From an uncultured Bacilli bacterium (lineage in GTDB: Bacteria; Bacillota_I; Bacilli_A; RF39; UBA660): a DNA stretch of 28,771 bases. Position 1 is the first letter of the stretch. Each line of letters starts with the position of its first letter. A program made the position numbers and the translations under genes. This document shows, piece after piece, positions 1,082 through 7,632 of this stretch. The DNA is taken from contig CANQBY010000001.1 in assembly GCA_947589695.1 (NCBI GenBank), positions 1-28,771 of the forward strand, written 5' to 3'. Under the pieces are notes generated by a model, which worked only from the letters and a program-made list of their open reading frames with translations, was not told where the DNA came from and ran no database searches.

Positions 1082-3304
1082 TTATCTTGCTTTGTTTTCA
1101 GAAAGATTATGGTAATAACTTAAAAATAAATTAGTTATTTCATCTTTGGTAAAGTGATAAGTTAAAACATTTTCATCAAGCATATTAAAATAATTCATAA
1201 TATCTTTAAGAGTTACAATATTATTAATTAAATCAGGATTAATGTCTATTTTAGTAGGAGCATTATAACCACAATTTAATTCGATATAAAAGTCCCCATT
1301 AATATCAGATGTTTTAGATAAATAAATATCGGTTATATCTAATAAAGTAGAACCATAATCAGGATCTTCATAACTTATTTGATATAAAGGAGTTACAATA
1401 ATATGATCATCTTCTAAAGAAACATTACTAAACCAAGAAGAACCTTTTAAAAATTCGGTTAGATAATCTGTACTTAAAATAGTATTTAAATTAAGTGATT
1501 CATACCAATAGCCTTGTAAATAATATGATAAAGGAAGAGGATTAGATAAATATAAAGGATTATTGTTAGTAGTAAAAATAATATTATTTTTTTGAGCTAT
1601 TGTATAAGTTATATTCTTATTACTATCAAGACCAATATATAAATTAACTTCATTATCATATTCATTATTACAAATATTTAAGTTTGCAATTACTTTATCA
1701 TTATATATAAGATCAATTGGTAAATAACGATGAGGAGAAATAATCATATTATCACGATTAAAATTAGCAATTAAAGTCGCATAATTATTTTCAGAAGGAT
1801 AAGTTAAAATAGTATCTAAAACATTTATATTATTAGGTAAATAATTTAACATAGCCTTACTTTTTAAAACAGTTTTGGTAATGAGTTTCCCTTGTTCATC
1901 AAAGGTACTATAATTATAATAAGATTCATTATCTTGGGTTATTTCTTCACAGTTAAAGATAAATTCGACATGAGAGTTTTCAAATACTAAATATTTATCA
2001 ATTAAGGAAAGATTGGTTAATTTAGTTTGAAAAATACTATAGTCTAAAGTAGGAATATTATGAGTGGCTAAATAATTATTAAAATCGGTATAATAATATT
2101 TAAATAAGTCTTCCTCCCCTTCAAGAGATCTAAGCATATTTAAAAAAGGTATTAAAGGCTGATAAGGTTCCTTTTCATTTAAAGTTTCTTTAGTAATTAA
2201 ATATAACTCATCATATAAAGCTTTTTTAGTAGAAGTAATATCTAAATGAGGATTTTTAGTACTTTCATTTAAAGCATCCATATAATTAATAATATAATCG
2301 ATATCAATATCCGGATATTTTTCTTTTAAAGTAGCAAGGTAATTGGTAATTCCATAATGATTATAATTAGTATAAGGATAGGGAACATTGGCTAGAAGAA
2401 AGTCCGTTATTTTACCACTGAAGGTGTAAGTAGTTGGAGTTAAGCCATAAATATCTTTAATATAATAATTAGTAATAGCTTCTTCTAGAGCAATACCATG
2501 CATTAAGCCATTTTCAATATTATAACCATAATAATATTTAGCATTTTCTTTAGTAATAGTAATAAAATGGGCAACATGAAACATTTCATGAAGGGCTATT
2601 TCGGGACTGCAAAAAGGAGTCGCATAGATGGCATTTTCTTTAACATCGTAGAAAGCAGCAACATTTTCACCCGCGAGAGCTTGAATTTCCGTGATGGGAA
2701 TTTCTTTAATTTTTAAGGTTTTTAAATTTTCATAAAAAAGACGTTTTTCGGGATTTTCCGCATTGGTATCCATAAAGGATAAAATACTTAAAGCAGCATT
2801 ACGATATTTTAAAGTTAAATCAGGGTTATTATCGATAACCTCTTTTATTTCATCATCAGAAATACTAGTATAACCAAGAATTGTATCTAATTCGTTTAAA
2901 TCTTTGATAACATAATAAAAATCAGCAGAAAGATTGGGATTATCAGTAGATGATTTAGCAAGATAATTCGGAGAAAATTCTTCTTCTGTGATAATTAAAT
3001 TATCATTTTCGACCGTTACTTGTTTCGGTTTAAAATACGCGGTTAGACCAATTGTGGCAATAACTGCCAAAGTAGCAGCTTGATAACGAACTTTTTCTTT
3101 AAATGTCAATTTGGGAATGGCAAAAACTTTGGTAATATCCACATTATTATAAATTTGATTTAAGTATAGAAAATCATCTAAGGTAGGATAAATGTAATTA
3201 CCTTCTTTAGTTAATTCTAAAAAAGTTTTACGATTTTTTTCGTCAATAAAAATAGTAAATTCTTTATCTTTATATTTAATATTAAATAATTTTTTATATG
3301 TCAT
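1082..3304 (-). CDS. Membrane-anchored hypothetical protein with a zincin-like metallopeptidase motif, 740 aa
   Basis: Hydrophobic segment AATLAVIATIGLTAYF near residue 80; HEXXH motif (IALHEMFHVAH) followed by GIALEEAITNYY (candidate third Zn ligand). Confidence 0.7.
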   Translation of the reverse strand: MTYKKLFNIKYKDKEFTIFIDEKNRKTFLELTKEGNYIYPTLDDFLYLNQIYNNVDITKVFAIPKLTFKEKVRYQAATLAVIATIGLTAYFKPKQVTVENDNLIITEEEFSPNYLAKSSTDNPNLSADFYYVIKDLNELDTILGYTSISDDEIKEVIDNNPDLTLKYRNAALSILSFMDTNAENPEKRLFYENLKTLKIKEIPITEIQALAGENVAAFYDVKENAIYATPFCSPEIALHEMFHVAHFITITKENAKYYYGYNIENGLMHGIALEEAITNYYIKDIYGLTPTTYTFSGKITDFLLANVPYPYTNYNHYGITNYLATLKEKYPDIDIDYIINYMDALNESTKNPHLDITSTKKALYDELYLITKETLNEKEPYQPLIPFLNMLRSLEGEEDLFKYYYTDFNNYLATHNIPTLDYSIFQTKLTNLSLIDKYLVFENSHVEFIFNCEEITQDNESYYNYSTFDEQGKLITKTVLKSKAMLNYLPNNINVLDTILTYPSENNYATLIANFNRDNMIISPHRYLPIDLIYNDKVIANLNICNNEYDNEVNLYIGLDSNKNITYTIAQKNNIIFTTNNNPLYLSNPLPLSYYLQGYWYESLNLNTILSTDYLTEFLKGSSWFSNVSLEDDHIIVTPLYQISYEDPDYGSTLLDITDIYLSKTSDINGDFYIELNCGYNAPTKIDINPDLINNIVTLKDIMNYFNMLDENVLTYHFTKDEITNLFLSYYHNLSENKAR

Positions 3305-5495: not shown

Positions 5496-5644
5496 CTCGA
5501 ACATTTAATTTGTTTGAATAAATTCTTTTCCATTCTTTGATATACTTCCTTTACTTAACTAATATCAAATTCTACTAATTCAGGCATTATTAAATGTTTA
5601 TTCATTTGTTTAGAACAAGCAACTTCGGTTGCTTGCTTTTTTTT
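5496..5644 (+). ncRNA. Candidate ~145-nt small RNA (long hairpin plus intrinsic terminator)
   Basis: AACATTTAAT 5500-5509 pairs with ATTAAATGTT 5589-5598; TGTTTGAAT pairs with ATTCAGGCA (two G-U); TTTGATAT/ATATCAAA closes a C/U-rich loop; promoter upstream and UUCG terminator downstream. Confidence 0.5.
5616..5644 (+). terminator. Intrinsic terminator
   Basis: CAAGCAAC-TTCG-GTTGCTTG (8 bp stem, C-UUCG-G loop) followed by C and a T run. Confidence 0.8.
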
Positions 5645-5697
5645 GTTTAAAAAAGATAGGTTTTAAAACCTATCAATATAAAGTAATAAAAATATAA

Positions 5698-5735
5698 CTT
5701 GCCCTTAGATAAAAAGGTTTAGCACTAAAGGCAAG
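5698..5735 (-). terminator. Probable terminator of the 474-aa gene
   Basis: CTTGCCCTTAG 5698-5708 / CTAAAGGCAAG 5725-5735 inverted repeat, a G-U pair on the minus strand. Confidence 0.45.
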
Positions 5736-5787
5736 AGAAATATTAAATTACACTACACTCCATCTAAAGTGCTCTACCATACTTCGT

Positions 5788-7212
5788 CTATGAGACTTCG
5801 TATGGATTTGTCATATTTCCTGGACCTGCAGTATCAGGACTTTTTGTTTTGAACTTTGTACCAGCTTTGAGATTTATTACTGGGCGCACACCACGAGTGT
5901 CGCTCACGTCGCTGCGGCCGAGGGAGCCATCACTATACACACCGAACACGTAAGCATAACCGTCATCAAAGCCACGCGGAGACATTGTCCAATAATTTCG
6001 GCCTGTATATAAGTAATAACTATCATTAGGTTGTCCAGCTAATCCTCCGGCAAAAACTACTTCATCTGCTGTGATTAAGCCTACTGGTACCGGTAATTTG
6101 CCATTGCCTTGTCCAGCACTATCACTTGTAGTATATAAATCTCTTTTCTTATTTTTGCATGTAAATGTTGGTTCTTGAGTAGTGTCCCAATCTGTGCTAC
6201 TAGGATTTAAAAATCTATCATATGCTCCATATATTGTTGGGAAAGTACCATACCCTTGGTTTGTATAAATAATATTTCCATGATTTGAAGAAGCTTTCGA
6301 TCTATCTCCACAAAAACCTGTTGCTCCATCTATTTTATTTTTATACTCTTCATTTTTACCTATTTTATTATCATACCATTCTTTTATTGTATCTAATATA
6401 GTACTATTTGTCACACTATCTGACATCTCATTGTTATATGTAGTTGATGGAGATTTTTTTTCACCATCATACATATAGCCTACATACTTATTATCGTTAA
6501 AAGTATCATTAAATTGTACATTAGCGTCATCATTAATAGATGTACCTTTACCAGTTTTTTGAGCAGTATCACCAGAATAAATAAGTCTTATAGTACCATC
6601 ACCATTAATTCGAATAATTCGCCAATACATATCAGCAAACTTGACCCAGTTATTATCCACTGTGCCTCGATAATAATATGTTATTCCGTAATCGTCTGTT
6701 CCTTTAAATAATCCGCTATTACTATCAGCACAACTTCCACATGCTGTACTTGAAAAACTTTCTTTGCCTTCTCGAGCTTCCTCTGTACTCAATCCTAATG
6801 CTGCCAAAGTTTTTAATGTAGCATTGGTAAAATAAACATAACATTTTGTTCCTTTTTTAGTTATATCAATTCTTACCTTATCTCCTGTATATTCCATATT
6901 ATTTGTTATTCTTTCTTCTGTACTTCCAACTATACAATAACTCTTTTCATTATCTATTTCATAATTACCTTTGGGTATTTCTTCTATTAATACATCATTT
7001 TTACCTGTACTTTTATACATAGCAATAACATTTAAATCAGCACTTGTATAATTTATTGTTCCTTCGGCTAACTTTACACTATCAACTGTTTTATATTTAG
7101 CTTTTGCAAATAATAAATTACTTACTGCAAGAAGTGCTACTCCCATTGCTAAGCCATATAAAAACCATTTTCCTTTTTTACTATTACTAATATCTAGTTT
7201 TTCGAATTTCAT
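5788..7212 (-). CDS. Membrane-anchored surface protein with C-terminal CLec-like domain, putative DGR target, 474 aa
   Basis: N-terminal hydrophobic anchor; YYYRGTVDNNWVKF...WRIIRINGDG, GLITADEV and C-terminal YWTMSP...AYVFGV..DG....V..TRGVRPVINL, the pattern of DGR-target C-type-lectin-fold domains. Confidence 0.8.
   Translation of the reverse strand: MKFEKLDISNSKKGKWFLYGLAMGVALLAVSNLLFAKAKYKTVDSVKLAEGTINYTSADLNVIAMYKSTGKNDVLIEEIPKGNYEIDNEKSYCIVGSTEERITNNMEYTGDKVRIDITKKGTKCYVYFTNATLKTLAALGLSTEEAREGKESFSSTACGSCADSNSGLFKGTDDYGITYYYRGTVDNNWVKFADMYWRIIRINGDGTIRLIYSGDTAQKTGKGTSINDDANVQFNDTFNDNKYVGYMYDGEKKSPSTTYNNEMSDSVTNSTILDTIKEWYDNKIGKNEEYKNKIDGATGFCGDRSKASSNHGNIIYTNQGYGTFPTIYGAYDRFLNPSSTDWDTTQEPTFTCKNKKRDLYTTSDSAGQGNGKLPVPVGLITADEVVFAGGLAGQPNDSYYLYTGRNYWTMSPRGFDDGYAYVFGVYSDGSLGRSDVSDTRGVRPVINLKAGTKFKTKSPDTAGPGNMTNPYEVS
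5881..6003 (-). other. Putative DGR variable repeat (VR)
   Basis: 60 G/C in 100 nt at 5881-5980 (hand count) in an AT-rich gene; 31 consecutive codons are 27 NNY plus 4 GTG, none ending in A. Confidence 0.75.
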
Positions 7213-7282
7213 TCCTTACCCTACTTCCTTTCTTAAGTTATACTTCATTTACTTATTGATTAATAATATGTAATATATTTAT

Positions 7283-7350
7283 AACCTATTTTGGCTTATA
7301 TTAATATAATAATCCATTTTGGGTTAAAAGTCAATAATCTATTTTAGATT
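7283..7350. promoter_or_regulatory. Three related 15-bp quasi-palindromic operator boxes
   Basis: AACCTATTTTGGCTT 7283-7297, AATCCATTTTGGGTT 7311-7325, AATCTATTTTAGATT 7336-7350. Confidence 0.65.
7306..7334 (-). promoter_or_regulatory. sigma-A promoter of the 474-aa gene
   Basis: TTGACT (7334-7329), 17 nt, TATTAT (7311-7306); the middle operator occupies the spacer. Confidence 0.65.
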
Positions 7351-7383
7351 ATGATAAAGTTATTTTATTGAGGATGGTAAGCT

Positions 7384-7608
7384 ATGAATAGATTAAAAGA
7401 ATTAAGAGAAGATAGAGATTTATTACAGAAAGATATTGCTAAATATCTTAATATGTCTCAGACTGGGTATTCGAAGTATGAAGTAGAGACAAATGATATT
7501 CCAACGGAAGTATTAAAAAAACTAGCATTATTTTATAATACTAGTATTGATTATTTGCTGTATCAAACGGATGAGAGAAAACCTTATCCCAAAAGTATTG
7601 TTGAATAG
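7384..7608 (+). CDS. XRE/Cro-C1 helix-turn-helix transcriptional regulator, 74 aa
   Basis: RLKELREDRDLLQKDIAKYLNMSQTGYSKYEVETNDIPTEVLKKLALFYNTSIDYLL is an HTH_3-type pattern. Confidence 0.92.
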   Translation: MNRLKELREDRDLLQKDIAKYLNMSQTGYSKYEVETNDIPTEVLKKLALFYNTSIDYLLYQTDERKPYPKSIVE

Positions 7609-7632
7609 TATTCTAAATTGAATACTTTTTTT
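7607..7632 (+). terminator. Terminator of the XRE gene
   Basis: AGTATTC-TAAATT-GAATACT followed by a T run. Confidence 0.6.

Follow-up and report, generated by a model that had tools for sequence, protein, structure and literature searches.

The window analysed here, a 28,771-nt stretch of one contig (C1), carries on its minus strand a gene for a 474-residue protein, in the 3' part of which lies a short patch of deviating composition (Table 1). The gene is adjoined by those for a SEDS protein, an XRE regulator, CdaR/YbbR and CdaA, in agreement with the housekeeping neighbourhood given in a preliminary description of this DNA, and an Rfam scan of the window returned tRNA-Gly alone. Sixty of the 100 nucleotides at 5881-5980 are G or C, and this is the window's sole 100-nt stretch that reaches 50% GC (maximum 61), against a mean of 25.7% for the window, 31% for the rest of the gene and 27.6% for the genome. 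Among the 31 codons at 5976-5884 (codons 413-443), 27 are NNY and four are GTG, and none ends in A; since Y-ending codons make up 50.6% and A-ending ones 42% of the remainder of the gene, the chance of meeting at least 27 Y-ending codons is P = 2e-5, and that of meeting no A-ending codon P = 5e-8. The GC count, the codon tally and the translation of the patch all reproduce exactly what the preliminary description had reported when it proposed the patch as a DGR variable region (VR).

Table 1. Features of the putative target gene in the window and of the RT locus on contig C43
Feature	Position	Strand	Basis and remarks
Putative DGR target gene, 474 aa	5788..7212	-	ORF call; N-terminal membrane anchor, small beta domain, C-type-lectin-like (DUF6273-type) domain
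Predicted transmembrane/signal-anchor helix, residues 13-37	7102..7176	-	Model helix H13-37; hydrophobic stretch WFLYGLAMGVALLAVSNLLFA in the translation
C-type-lectin-like domain, residues ~137-474	5791..6804	-	VIA-align structure matches
Putative VR, 100 nt, TCTCCG...GGTGTGCGCC, codons 411-444 of 474	5883..5982	-	Base-for-base alignment with TR bodies
3' 81 nt of VR	5883..5963	-	Pure adenine-mutagenesis signature relative to the seven-TR majority consensus
5' 19 nt of VR	5964..5982	-	Clean match to no assembled TR; non-A mismatches to every TR concentrated here
GC-rich 3' end GGTGTGCGCC	5883..5892	-	Identical in 7/7 TRs and 15 VRs including the window VR (whole-genome anchor scan)
IMH-like segment CAGTAATAAATCTCAAAGC, directly 3' of VR	5864..5882	-	Kept in VRs; TRs have (C)AATATCC... 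instead
Conserved 38-nt element ACGAAGTATGGTAGAGCAC...GGAGTGTAGTGT, immediately past the stop codon	5750..5787	-	Found after 8 target genes
DGR-type RT	C43:5373-6512	-	RVT_1 E 6.7e-21; the assembly's sole PF00078 match
Avd, 121-aa ORF overlapping the RT start	C43		NF033474 E 1.8e-9 and PF22296 bAvd E 8.5e-10, with scores under the curated cut-offs (37.9 vs 80 and 39.5 vs 40)
MutS_I-like ORF upstream of Avd/RT	C43		28.4 bits, above the cut-off of 20.6

The AlphaFold model of the protein (pLDDT 86.3, pTM 0.81) contains a C-type-lectin-like fold within which the VR lies, bearing out the C-terminal lectin-type domain that had been supposed, and the predicted N-terminal helix would give the protein the membrane topology of an anchored protein. 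In VIA-align comparisons, residues 137-474 of the model found their top match (Z 12.9) in the N-terminal DUF6273 domain of the T. ramosa IgA peptidase (9qa6, residues 32-303), with lower values for the C-terminal domain of Legionella Lcl (Z 6.2) and for Treponema TvpA (2y3c, Z 4.9); residues 190-450 matched dozens of CTLDs at Z of about 4, most of the Z values being modest (4-6). The match of the modelled fold to 9qa6 supports a structural relationship of the target to DUF6273. Pfam DUF6273 itself scores weakly on the target (16.7 bits, below the gathering threshold of 23.5, and over residues 403-449 only), and PF19789 is present in the precomputed annotation of several target homologues. A sequence search of solved structures with the target protein gave no match, and Foldseek with the whole protein returned nothing at E <= 1e-3. 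No near-identical orthologue or allele was found in the protein collection, where the best match is 57% identical and the 90% cluster of the protein has a single member.

The gene is one member of a large family. The assembly (71% complete, 159 contigs, from a genome of about 1.1-1.5 Mb) holds about 44 paralogous target loci, which take up 4.5% of it, and 25 VRs, putting the number of targets at about 25-44. Many targets are located at contig ends, and the assemblies of the group break at VRs. Metagenome contigs from four rabbit/other gut runs (3-6x depth) likewise end at the VR or leave out precisely that stretch (5883/5893/5908 to 5977), for which the flanks common to paralogues are a possible source. 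Past the shared GC-rich end, the whole-genome anchor scan revealed a clean split into a VR type, reading CAGTAATnAATCTCAA, and a TR type, reading (C)AATATCC. If the Bordetella phage DGR is taken as a guide, the IMH-like segment that follows the VR is a putative homing determinant, and the differing TR sequence would be its IMH* counterpart. The 38-nt element past the stop codon is located 94-104 nt beyond the VR end wherever that end is assembled, and a comparison of its copies as hairpins gave no consistent fold.

The preliminary description had found neither RT nor TR in the window and called the VR an orphan served in trans from a distance. The window is indeed without both, as the only PF00078 match lies on contig C43 and no TR-end or TR-tail match falls on C1, and trans service agrees with the RT on C43 and seven TR copies on other contigs; the VR is thus an orphan within the window and not within the genome. 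Contig C43 (8.8 kb) carries an intact MutS-like/Avd/DGR-type RT locus, the MutS-like ORF of which corresponds to the "MSL" accessory gene (Wu et al. 2018). The best PDB match of the RT is 8ub7 (E 3.7e-27), with its IGNMTSQ aligned to the IGSLTSQ of that chain; DGR RTs have such an [I/L/V]GxxxSQ motif where other RTs have QG. With a dN/dS of 0.04-0.14 against eight relatives, the RT of the source genome is, judged from its sequence, intact and under purifying selection. In the canonical compact cassette, target, avd, TR and RT lie within a few kb; here, no TR was found on C43, about 44 related loci have none in the 6 kb on either side of the RT, and in G021 (the Mycoplasma sp. CAG:776 scaffold) 137 kb separate the RT from the nearest TRs. 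Of 24 other species, 19 have the RT; for TR tails the count is 36 of 40. From such occurrences, we regard the system as conserved throughout a genus of uncultured gut Bacilli with reduced genomes, "Mycoplasma sp. CAG:776" among them.

Instead of the single template that had been expected, at least seven stand-alone TRs were identified in the assembly, on contigs other than that of the target and with four arrayed in tandem, and some relatives have 16 to 21 or more TR genes. A TR unit is about 270 nt long and is predicted from sequence to comprise a promoter-like -10 box, a helix that closes around the TR, a structured tail that is conserved, and a terminator. When 33 units drawn from 13 genomes are compared, 22 of the 52 predicted base pairs keep pairing despite changes on both sides, and these covarying pairs include the long-range helix enclosing the TR and the terminator hairpin, which is followed by a U-run. 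We therefore take the TR units to be RNA genes. No Rfam family reaches its threshold on them. As a lead only, RT-9 RNA (RF03080) aligns to the tail of one unit through the hairpin loop GGUUAnGGCU and several further blocks, at 24 bits against a gathering threshold of 46.1 (E 0.37); no paper bringing up RT-9 alongside candidate structured RNAs and a reverse transcriptase turned up in the literature searched.

Base-for-base comparison of the VR with the consensus of these templates revealed differences limited to adenines over most of its length. Against the majority consensus of the seven TRs, which is not itself an assembled sequence, the 3' 81 nt of the VR are changed at 19 of 30 A positions and at 0 of 51 non-A positions (Fisher P = 3.6e-11). 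Against the best single TR (C49d), the full 100 nt are changed at 20 of 29 A and 8 of 71 non-A positions (P = 2e-8), and 13 of the 20 A substitutions are A-to-G, a skewed spectrum. When the other bases were taken as the free one, the window VR left 22-27 positions unexplained with T, G or C versus 8 with A, and the sum over 17 VRs came to 412-474 versus 233. The template predicted in the preliminary description fared well in its 79-nt core, GGTAATGCT...GGTGTGCGCC, which is letter-identical to the majority consensus, while its first ~20 nt match no assembled TR. It had also been expected that a genome-wide search would bring up a TR-like copy beside an RT and avd; what the genome holds is a TR family located away from the RT, and when the whole genome was scanned without gaps for a TR from which the VR differs at adenines only, no perfect match came up. 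Neither the genome's seven TRs nor the 31 distinct TRs obtained by adding those of relatives include a perfect cognate: the best leave 6-8 non-A mismatches, for the most part within the opening ~20 nt, and the best of the 31 leaves 6. Full-length A-only VR/TR pairs were not found in the MAG, the exception being a truncated VR (C114), which differs from TR_C49b at 3 of 14 A and 0 of 33 non-A positions; the 99%-complete relative G018 has no A-only pair either, its best pairs showing 3-6 non-A mismatches.

Taken together, we consider it very probable that 5883-5982 on the minus strand is the VR of a chromosomal DGR target on a membrane-anchored surface protein, with the RT locus and the stand-alone TR genes elsewhere in the genome, and that about 30 codons in the C-type-lectin-like domain were rewritten by adenine-specific mutagenic retrohoming. 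In such a process, RT-Avd would bind TR RNA, which would be copied to cDNA with random bases opposite adenines, and the cDNA would replace the homologous VR in any target with the shared GGTGTGCGCC end and the VR-type flank; the gene in the window would be one of the ~25-44 targets.

Whether retrohoming continues at this gene is a separate matter, and the balance of the evidence tilts modestly towards its being ongoing. Alternatively, the VR might be a fossil, written by the DGR in the past and no longer diversified, for example through loss of the cognate TR or death of the recognition elements. Such a fate would fit the 5' 19 nt that lack a matching assembled TR, the RT pseudogenes in some related species (G012, G009 and G024), and the decay that occurs within the family itself, as the VRs of this genome grade into clearly decayed copies, which carry 13-23 non-A changes in 50. 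However, the window VR is the cleanest of the assembly's 25 VRs relative to the TR consensus, with not one non-A change among 51 positions over 81 nt, and since a long-dead copy would resemble the decayed VRs, this cleanness counts against long death. Furthermore, the patch still has 60% GC in a genome of 27.6%, so that AT-biased erosion is not seen, its GC-rich end and VR-type flank are intact, matching the family consensus exactly, and the genome's own RT is intact and under purifying selection. Fossil status is the strongest of the competing explanations, and an unlikely one.

Classical antigenic-variation systems rely on silent cassettes, and the non-coding copies might be such cassettes, donating to the surface-protein genes by homologous recombination independently of any RT. 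This would account for the many non-coding partial copies and their tandem arrays, and some VRs do resemble mosaics of two TRs; in a mosaic dynamic programming of the window VR, the number of unexplained positions fell from 8 to 6, 3 and 1 as zero to three template switches were allowed. The controls with T, G and C, however, profited from extra switches to much the same extent as A, with drops of similar absolute size, thus a mosaic origin is not demonstrated. Recombination copies donor bases faithfully and therefore cannot produce differences limited to donor adenines, as observed here (19/30 vs 0/51); moreover, covarying RNA structure, a -10-like box and a terminator would be needless for DNA donors, and a DGR RT and Avd co-occur with the copies and are conserved. 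Gene conversion without RT is consequently regarded as highly improbable. The GC anomaly alone would also fit a compositional island arisen by chance or acquired horizontally and without any link to a retroelement, a reading of negligible probability that is refuted by the 44 related copies in the genome, the codon pattern (P = 2e-5 and 5e-8), the free-base control and the A-only relation to the TRs.

Returning to diversification by a DGR acting in trans, the templates themselves differ from one another in a suggestive manner. Their 5' segments vary in sequence and length, and in the template core TR-to-TR differences fall on 39 of 203 A positions versus 14 of 350 non-A positions (P = 1.4e-8), a bias absent from the non-template tail (P = 0.41). 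The templates thus appear to be diversified at adenines, going by this pattern of differences; the same bias could equally come from selection tolerating change only at variable codons. Because all TR RNAs and live VRs share one 3' end, any template could rewrite any target. We tentatively propose, as a possibility that we ourselves hold to be rather doubtful, a two-tier combinatorial diversifier in which any of 7-20+ templates would act on any of dozens of targets, mosaics would form via partial cDNA integration, and the templates would themselves be A-diversified. If true, a heritable, evolving template library would lie atop the usual somatic-style mutagenesis.

In a textbook DGR, a single RT has a single template next to it and acts on one or a few targets, and to our knowledge DGRs are the only natural bacterial system that rewrites chosen codons at random. 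In the Treponema denticola DGR, a single TR is located beside the RT. That system is chromosomal and non-phage, and its one RT serves TvpA together with seven remote surface-protein targets in trans (Wu et al. 2018). It shares with the present system the dispersed surface-protein targets acted on in trans and the C-terminal VR on a C-type-lectin-type fold; however, the seven remote targets there compare with ~25-44 targets and at least seven TRs here, none of them near the RT, and an HRDC accessory gene there takes the place of MSL and Avd here. The Legionella DGR packs TR, target and RT side by side into a compact cassette. In Legionella pneumophila it belongs to "Architecture D", the MSL-containing cassettes (Wu et al. 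2018). Common to both systems are MSL, avd and RT, a diversified cell-surface protein and the resemblance to the Lcl C-terminal domain (Z 6.2), whereas the templates here are separate RNA genes, dispersed or arrayed. The DGR of Bordetella phage BPP-1 (mtd-avd-TR-brt) has one TR between avd and brt and one target. Like the present system, it has Avd and an RT with the [I/L]GxxxSQ motif; its VR differs from its TR specifically at adenines, and the two share a GC-rich 3' end after which they diverge. The BPP-1 DGR RNA offers a structural parallel to the TR-bracketing helix and structured tail. In contrast to that phage element, the TR RNA here has its own promoter-like box and terminator and exists in many copies far from the RT.

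Two further systems deserve comparison. Thiohalocapsa PB-PSB1 has many C-type-lectin DGR targets, some diversified in trans by components encoded elsewhere, and at least nine numbered DGR loci, of which 1, 3, 4, 5 and 7 count as incomplete DGRs or as remote targets, with targets in conflict systems (PNAS 2024, PMC10907252); here, by contrast, one RT locus and a pool of TR genes serve surface proteins that all belong to one paralogous family, in a genome of ~1.1-1.5 Mb. DUF6273 has been recognised before as a target of phage DGRs, in "tentaclins" and others, which are phage receptor-binding proteins in phage DGR cassettes, some with VRs near the N-terminus (PMC10743442). While the VR lies on the same domain type (DUF6273, C-type-lectin-like) in both, the protein studied here is a cellular, membrane-anchored one with a C-terminal VR.

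Targets per DGR have been put at no more than 8 (Wu et al. 2018), a 2024 survey recorded at most 6 target genes per MAG, and surveys mention only "two or more TRs". Our literature search found no description of "multiple TRs" or tandem TR arrays, and no paper linking DGRs with RF39, RFN20, CAG-776 or Tenericutes. The pipeline of Roux et al. 2021 is, by its own statement, blind to targets not next to the RT, so that similar systems are probably undercounted in surveys. What sets the present system apart is the combination of a template-less RT locus, a pool of template-RNA genes predicted to be independently transcribed, and dozens of surface-protein genes. Trans-acting template-RNA genes of ~270 nt are the type of module wanted for programmable in-vivo mutagenesis tools. 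For the organisms themselves, the finding suggests that varying the surface on a massive scale, aimed at the host, at phage or at neighbouring cells, is one of the chief ways in which these gut bacteria with tiny genomes adapt.

The preliminary description drew attention to a GC-rich patch of NNY codons in a housekeeping neighbourhood, and both its counts and its setting were reproduced. The patch holds 60 G/C in 100 nt at 5881-5980, and no other 100-nt stretch in the window attains 50% GC, the window mean being 25.7% and that of the remainder of the gene 31%. Among the 31 codons at 5976-5884, which are codons 413-443 of a 474-codon ORF on the minus strand, 27 are NNY, four are GTG and none ends in A; given the codon usage elsewhere in the gene, that many NNY codons would arise with P = 2e-5 and a complete absence of A-ending codons with P = 5e-8. 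Since a SEDS protein is encoded on one side of the gene and XRE, CdaR/YbbR and CdaA proteins on the other, this is a housekeeping setting. The statement that neither template repeat (TR) nor reverse transcriptase (RT) lies nearby held within the window but not genome-wide, as a Pfam RVT_1 search of the source assembly identified a single RT, on contig C43, and seven non-coding copies of the variable region (VR) sequence were found on three other contigs. BLASTN with the patch returned 44 related sites in the assembly, many at contig ends. In the seven TR copies AAY codons are abundant where VRs vary, and the TR end, GGTGTGCGCC, is identical to the VR end; downstream of it TRs read (C)AATATCC... 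and VRs read CAGTAATnAATCTCAA.

Features of the window (contig C1), of other contigs of the source assembly and of a relative
Feature	Contig	Position	Strand	Remark
Variable region	window	5883-5982	-	
Target gene	window	7212..5788	-	474 codons
38-nt element	window	5750-5787	-	
SEDS-target intergenic stretch	window	5510-5731		
XRE-family HTH gene	window	7384-7608	+	Pfam
740-aa ORF	window	1082-3304	-	no Pfam match at E <= 1e-3
XRE-like HTH gene	C58	1727-1954		by eye
XRE-like HTH gene	C98	3466-3909		by eye
XRE-like HTH gene	C134	1578-1859		by eye
RT	C43	5373-6512	-	379 aa
TR unit	C2	4294-4568	+	
TR unit	C2	15860-16126	+	
TR unit	C49	2211-2486	-	tandem array
TR unit	C49	1900-2170	-	tandem array
TR unit	C49	1482-1762	-	tandem array
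TR unit	C49	1193-1465	-	tandem array
TR unit	C114	3602-3873	-	
TR beside target	C114	3602-4261		
TR beside target	C2	15860-17429		
TR beside target	C15 of relative G018 (locus L116)	6630-7620		
RT-9 RNA match	locus L012	1161-1239	-	tail of unit C49a

Aligned without gaps over 100 nt to the best single TR, C49d of the tandem array, the window VR shows 20 changes at the 29 TR adenines and 8 at the 71 other positions (P = 2e-8). A free-base control of the same pair left 8 positions unexplained for A, 27 for T, 22 for G and 25 for C, and over 17 VRs the unexplained total was 233 for A versus 412-474 for the other bases. The non-A mismatches are concentrated in the first ~20 nt, where TRs vary in sequence and length, and at the few remaining ones C49d has G or C where other TRs have A. 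Against the majority consensus of the seven TRs, which was constructed independently of the VR, the 3' 81 nt have 19 of 30 adenines changed but not one of the 51 non-A positions (P = 3.6e-11). The TR that had been predicted from the VR alone is identical to this consensus across a 79-nt core. Over the core, the window VR is the cleanest of 25 VRs (non-A 0/50), followed by those on C135, C3, C110, C114 and C101 (0-2 non-A changes), and the most decayed are those on C8, C134 and C58 (13-23 of 50); contig C114 ends in a truncated VR that differs from the C49b template at 0/33 non-A and 3/14 A positions. With this A-only signature over its 3' 81 nt, and with RT and TRs on other contigs, the window feature is a real variable region of a diversity-generating retroelement (DGR) served in trans, as had been proposed.

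No single assembled TR, either among the seven of this assembly or among 31 distinct sequences pooled from it and from relatives, explains the full VR, the best leaving 6-8 non-A mismatches. The cognate TR may be unassembled, because the source assembly (1.13 Mb, 159 contigs, 27.6% GC, the window being its contig C1) is 71% complete, or the window VR may be a mosaic. In G018, a relative with 99% completeness, 11 TRs and 14 VRs, the best TR-VR pairs retain 3-6 non-A mismatches and some VRs resemble two-template mosaics; a formal mosaic test performed no better than its controls.

The RT best matches 8ub7 among solved structures (E 3.7e-27), which we take to be the Bordetella phage bRT, and its motif IGNMTSQ aligns with IGSLTSQ of that chain, the IGxxxSQ-type motif being a hallmark of DGRs. 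A 121-aa ORF overlapping the RT start matches the Avd families NF033474 (E 1.8e-9) and PF22296 (E 8.5e-10), both slightly below curated cut-offs, and a 150-aa ORF upstream matches MutS domain I above the cut-off. The latter corresponds to the MutS-like accessory gene (MSL) characteristic of Architecture D, the class to which the Legionella DGR belongs (Wu et al. 2018). C43 terminates within a further target gene carrying its own VR. TRs are absent from C43, and also from within +/-6 kb of the RT across about 44 related RT loci. Of 24 other species in the genus, 19 have the RT, which in a few is visibly decayed; its dN/dS is 0.04-0.14 in eight comparisons. TR tails were found in 36 of 40 other species. 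These uncultured gut Bacilli have genomes of 0.8-1.5 Mb, and related RT records come chiefly from rabbit MAGs, in addition to entries with names such as 'Mycoplasma sp. CAG:776' and 'uncultured Tenericutes'. Some genomes have at least 20-21 TR-tail matches; in relatives with good assemblies, exact counts of TR ends are 16 in G003 (with an array of 7), 11 in G018 (array of 5) and 9 in G021, where the nearest TRs lie 137 kb from the RT. In three relatives the RT is truncated or full of stop codons (G012:C50, G009:C43, G024:C51) and TR-tail units persist (4, 1 and 8 matches, respectively), which looks like systems caught in decay.

Most TR units carry, by eye, a TGnTATAAT-type -10 box. A GGTTAATCT box pairs with AGATTAATC ~190 nt downstream, so that the TR is enclosed by a helix, and each unit further comprises an ATATCC/GGATAT helix, a hairpin with loop GGTTAAGGCT and a terminator consisting of a hairpin and a downstream U-run. 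Pairing is kept through two-sided changes in 17 of 62 predicted pairs among the seven units, and in 22 of 52, including four pairs of the enclosing helix, among 33 units from 13 genomes, which marks the TR units as structured RNA genes that stand alone. None of the Rfam families reached threshold on them. RT-9 RNA (RF03080) matched the tail of one unit weakly (24 bits, E 0.37; gathering score 46.1); the alignment takes in the hairpin loop GGUUAnGGCU and several blocks, and RT-9 may be a distant relative of the TR tail. Some units are immediate neighbours of a target gene, either 250-500 nt past the stop codon or a short way upstream of the start, forming VR-TR pairs without RT; others form arrays distant from any target. 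Within the template core, the units of this assembly differ from each other at 39 of 203 A versus 14 of 350 non-A positions (P = 1.4e-8), a bias absent from the non-template tail (P = 0.41), and TRs of relatives show a similar trend (314/972 versus 180/1682; 35 sequences, loci L025-L035 and L114-L119). Either templates are occasionally mutagenised, or selection permits change solely at variable codons.

The confident structure model of the target protein (pLDDT 86.3, pTM 0.81) begins with an N-terminal helix (13-37), interpreted as a membrane anchor. A small beta domain follows, and a large domain spans residues ~137-474. Its structural matches are the N-terminal DUF6273 domain of T. ramosa IgA peptidase (Z 12.9), the C-terminal domain of Legionella Lcl (Z 6.2), Treponema denticola TvpA (Z 4.9) and dozens of C-type lectin domains (Z about 4); DUF6273 has been described as C-type-lectin-like and as a DGR target in phage tentaclins (PMC10743442). 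The target family occupies about 44 loci in the assembly, at least 29 near full length, amounting to 4.5% of its bases, and has more than 6,000 relatives in public data. Immediately 3' of the stop codon of eight target genes, 94-104 nt beyond the VR end, lies a conserved 38-nt element, ACGAAGTATGGTAGAGCAC...GGAGTGTAGTGT, the copies outside the window being on C41, C71, C78, C101, C104, C110 and C114. The VRs of six of these genes (all except C41 and C104) were compared with TRs and match them comparatively well (0-6 non-A changes of 50). The copies of the element share no consistent fold; a role in target recognition or in the 3' UTR is conceivable. The window target is adjoined by a small XRE-family HTH gene and similar genes lie beside at least three paralogues, as assigned by Pfam for the window copy and by sequence resemblance for the others, which suggests that each target gene has its own repressor.

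The protein collection contained no allele or close orthologue of the window target protein. The locus was recovered from rabbit-gut and other gut runs of two studies, as contigs at 3-6x depth; in each of the four runs, contigs align to the two flanks but omit 5883, 5893 or 5908 to 5977, exactly the VR; paralogues, however, share these flanks. Summed contig depth over the intergenic stretch between the SEDS and target genes was 78x in run X1 and 21-24x in run X3, versus ~3-6x nearby, as if a non-coding element that is repeated or widely conserved lay there.

At most eight targets per DGR have been reported, with seven remote ones in Treponema (Wu et al. 2018), and Roux et al. 2021 state that remote targets escape their pipeline. 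Thiohalocapsa PB-PSB1 has multiple DGR loci, of which some act in trans (PMC10907252). In the literature covered, which is incomplete, so that this is absence of evidence, we found no description of stand-alone TR gene arrays or of DGRs in this lineage. The interest of the VR identified here lies chiefly in its unusual, highly multiplexed parent system.
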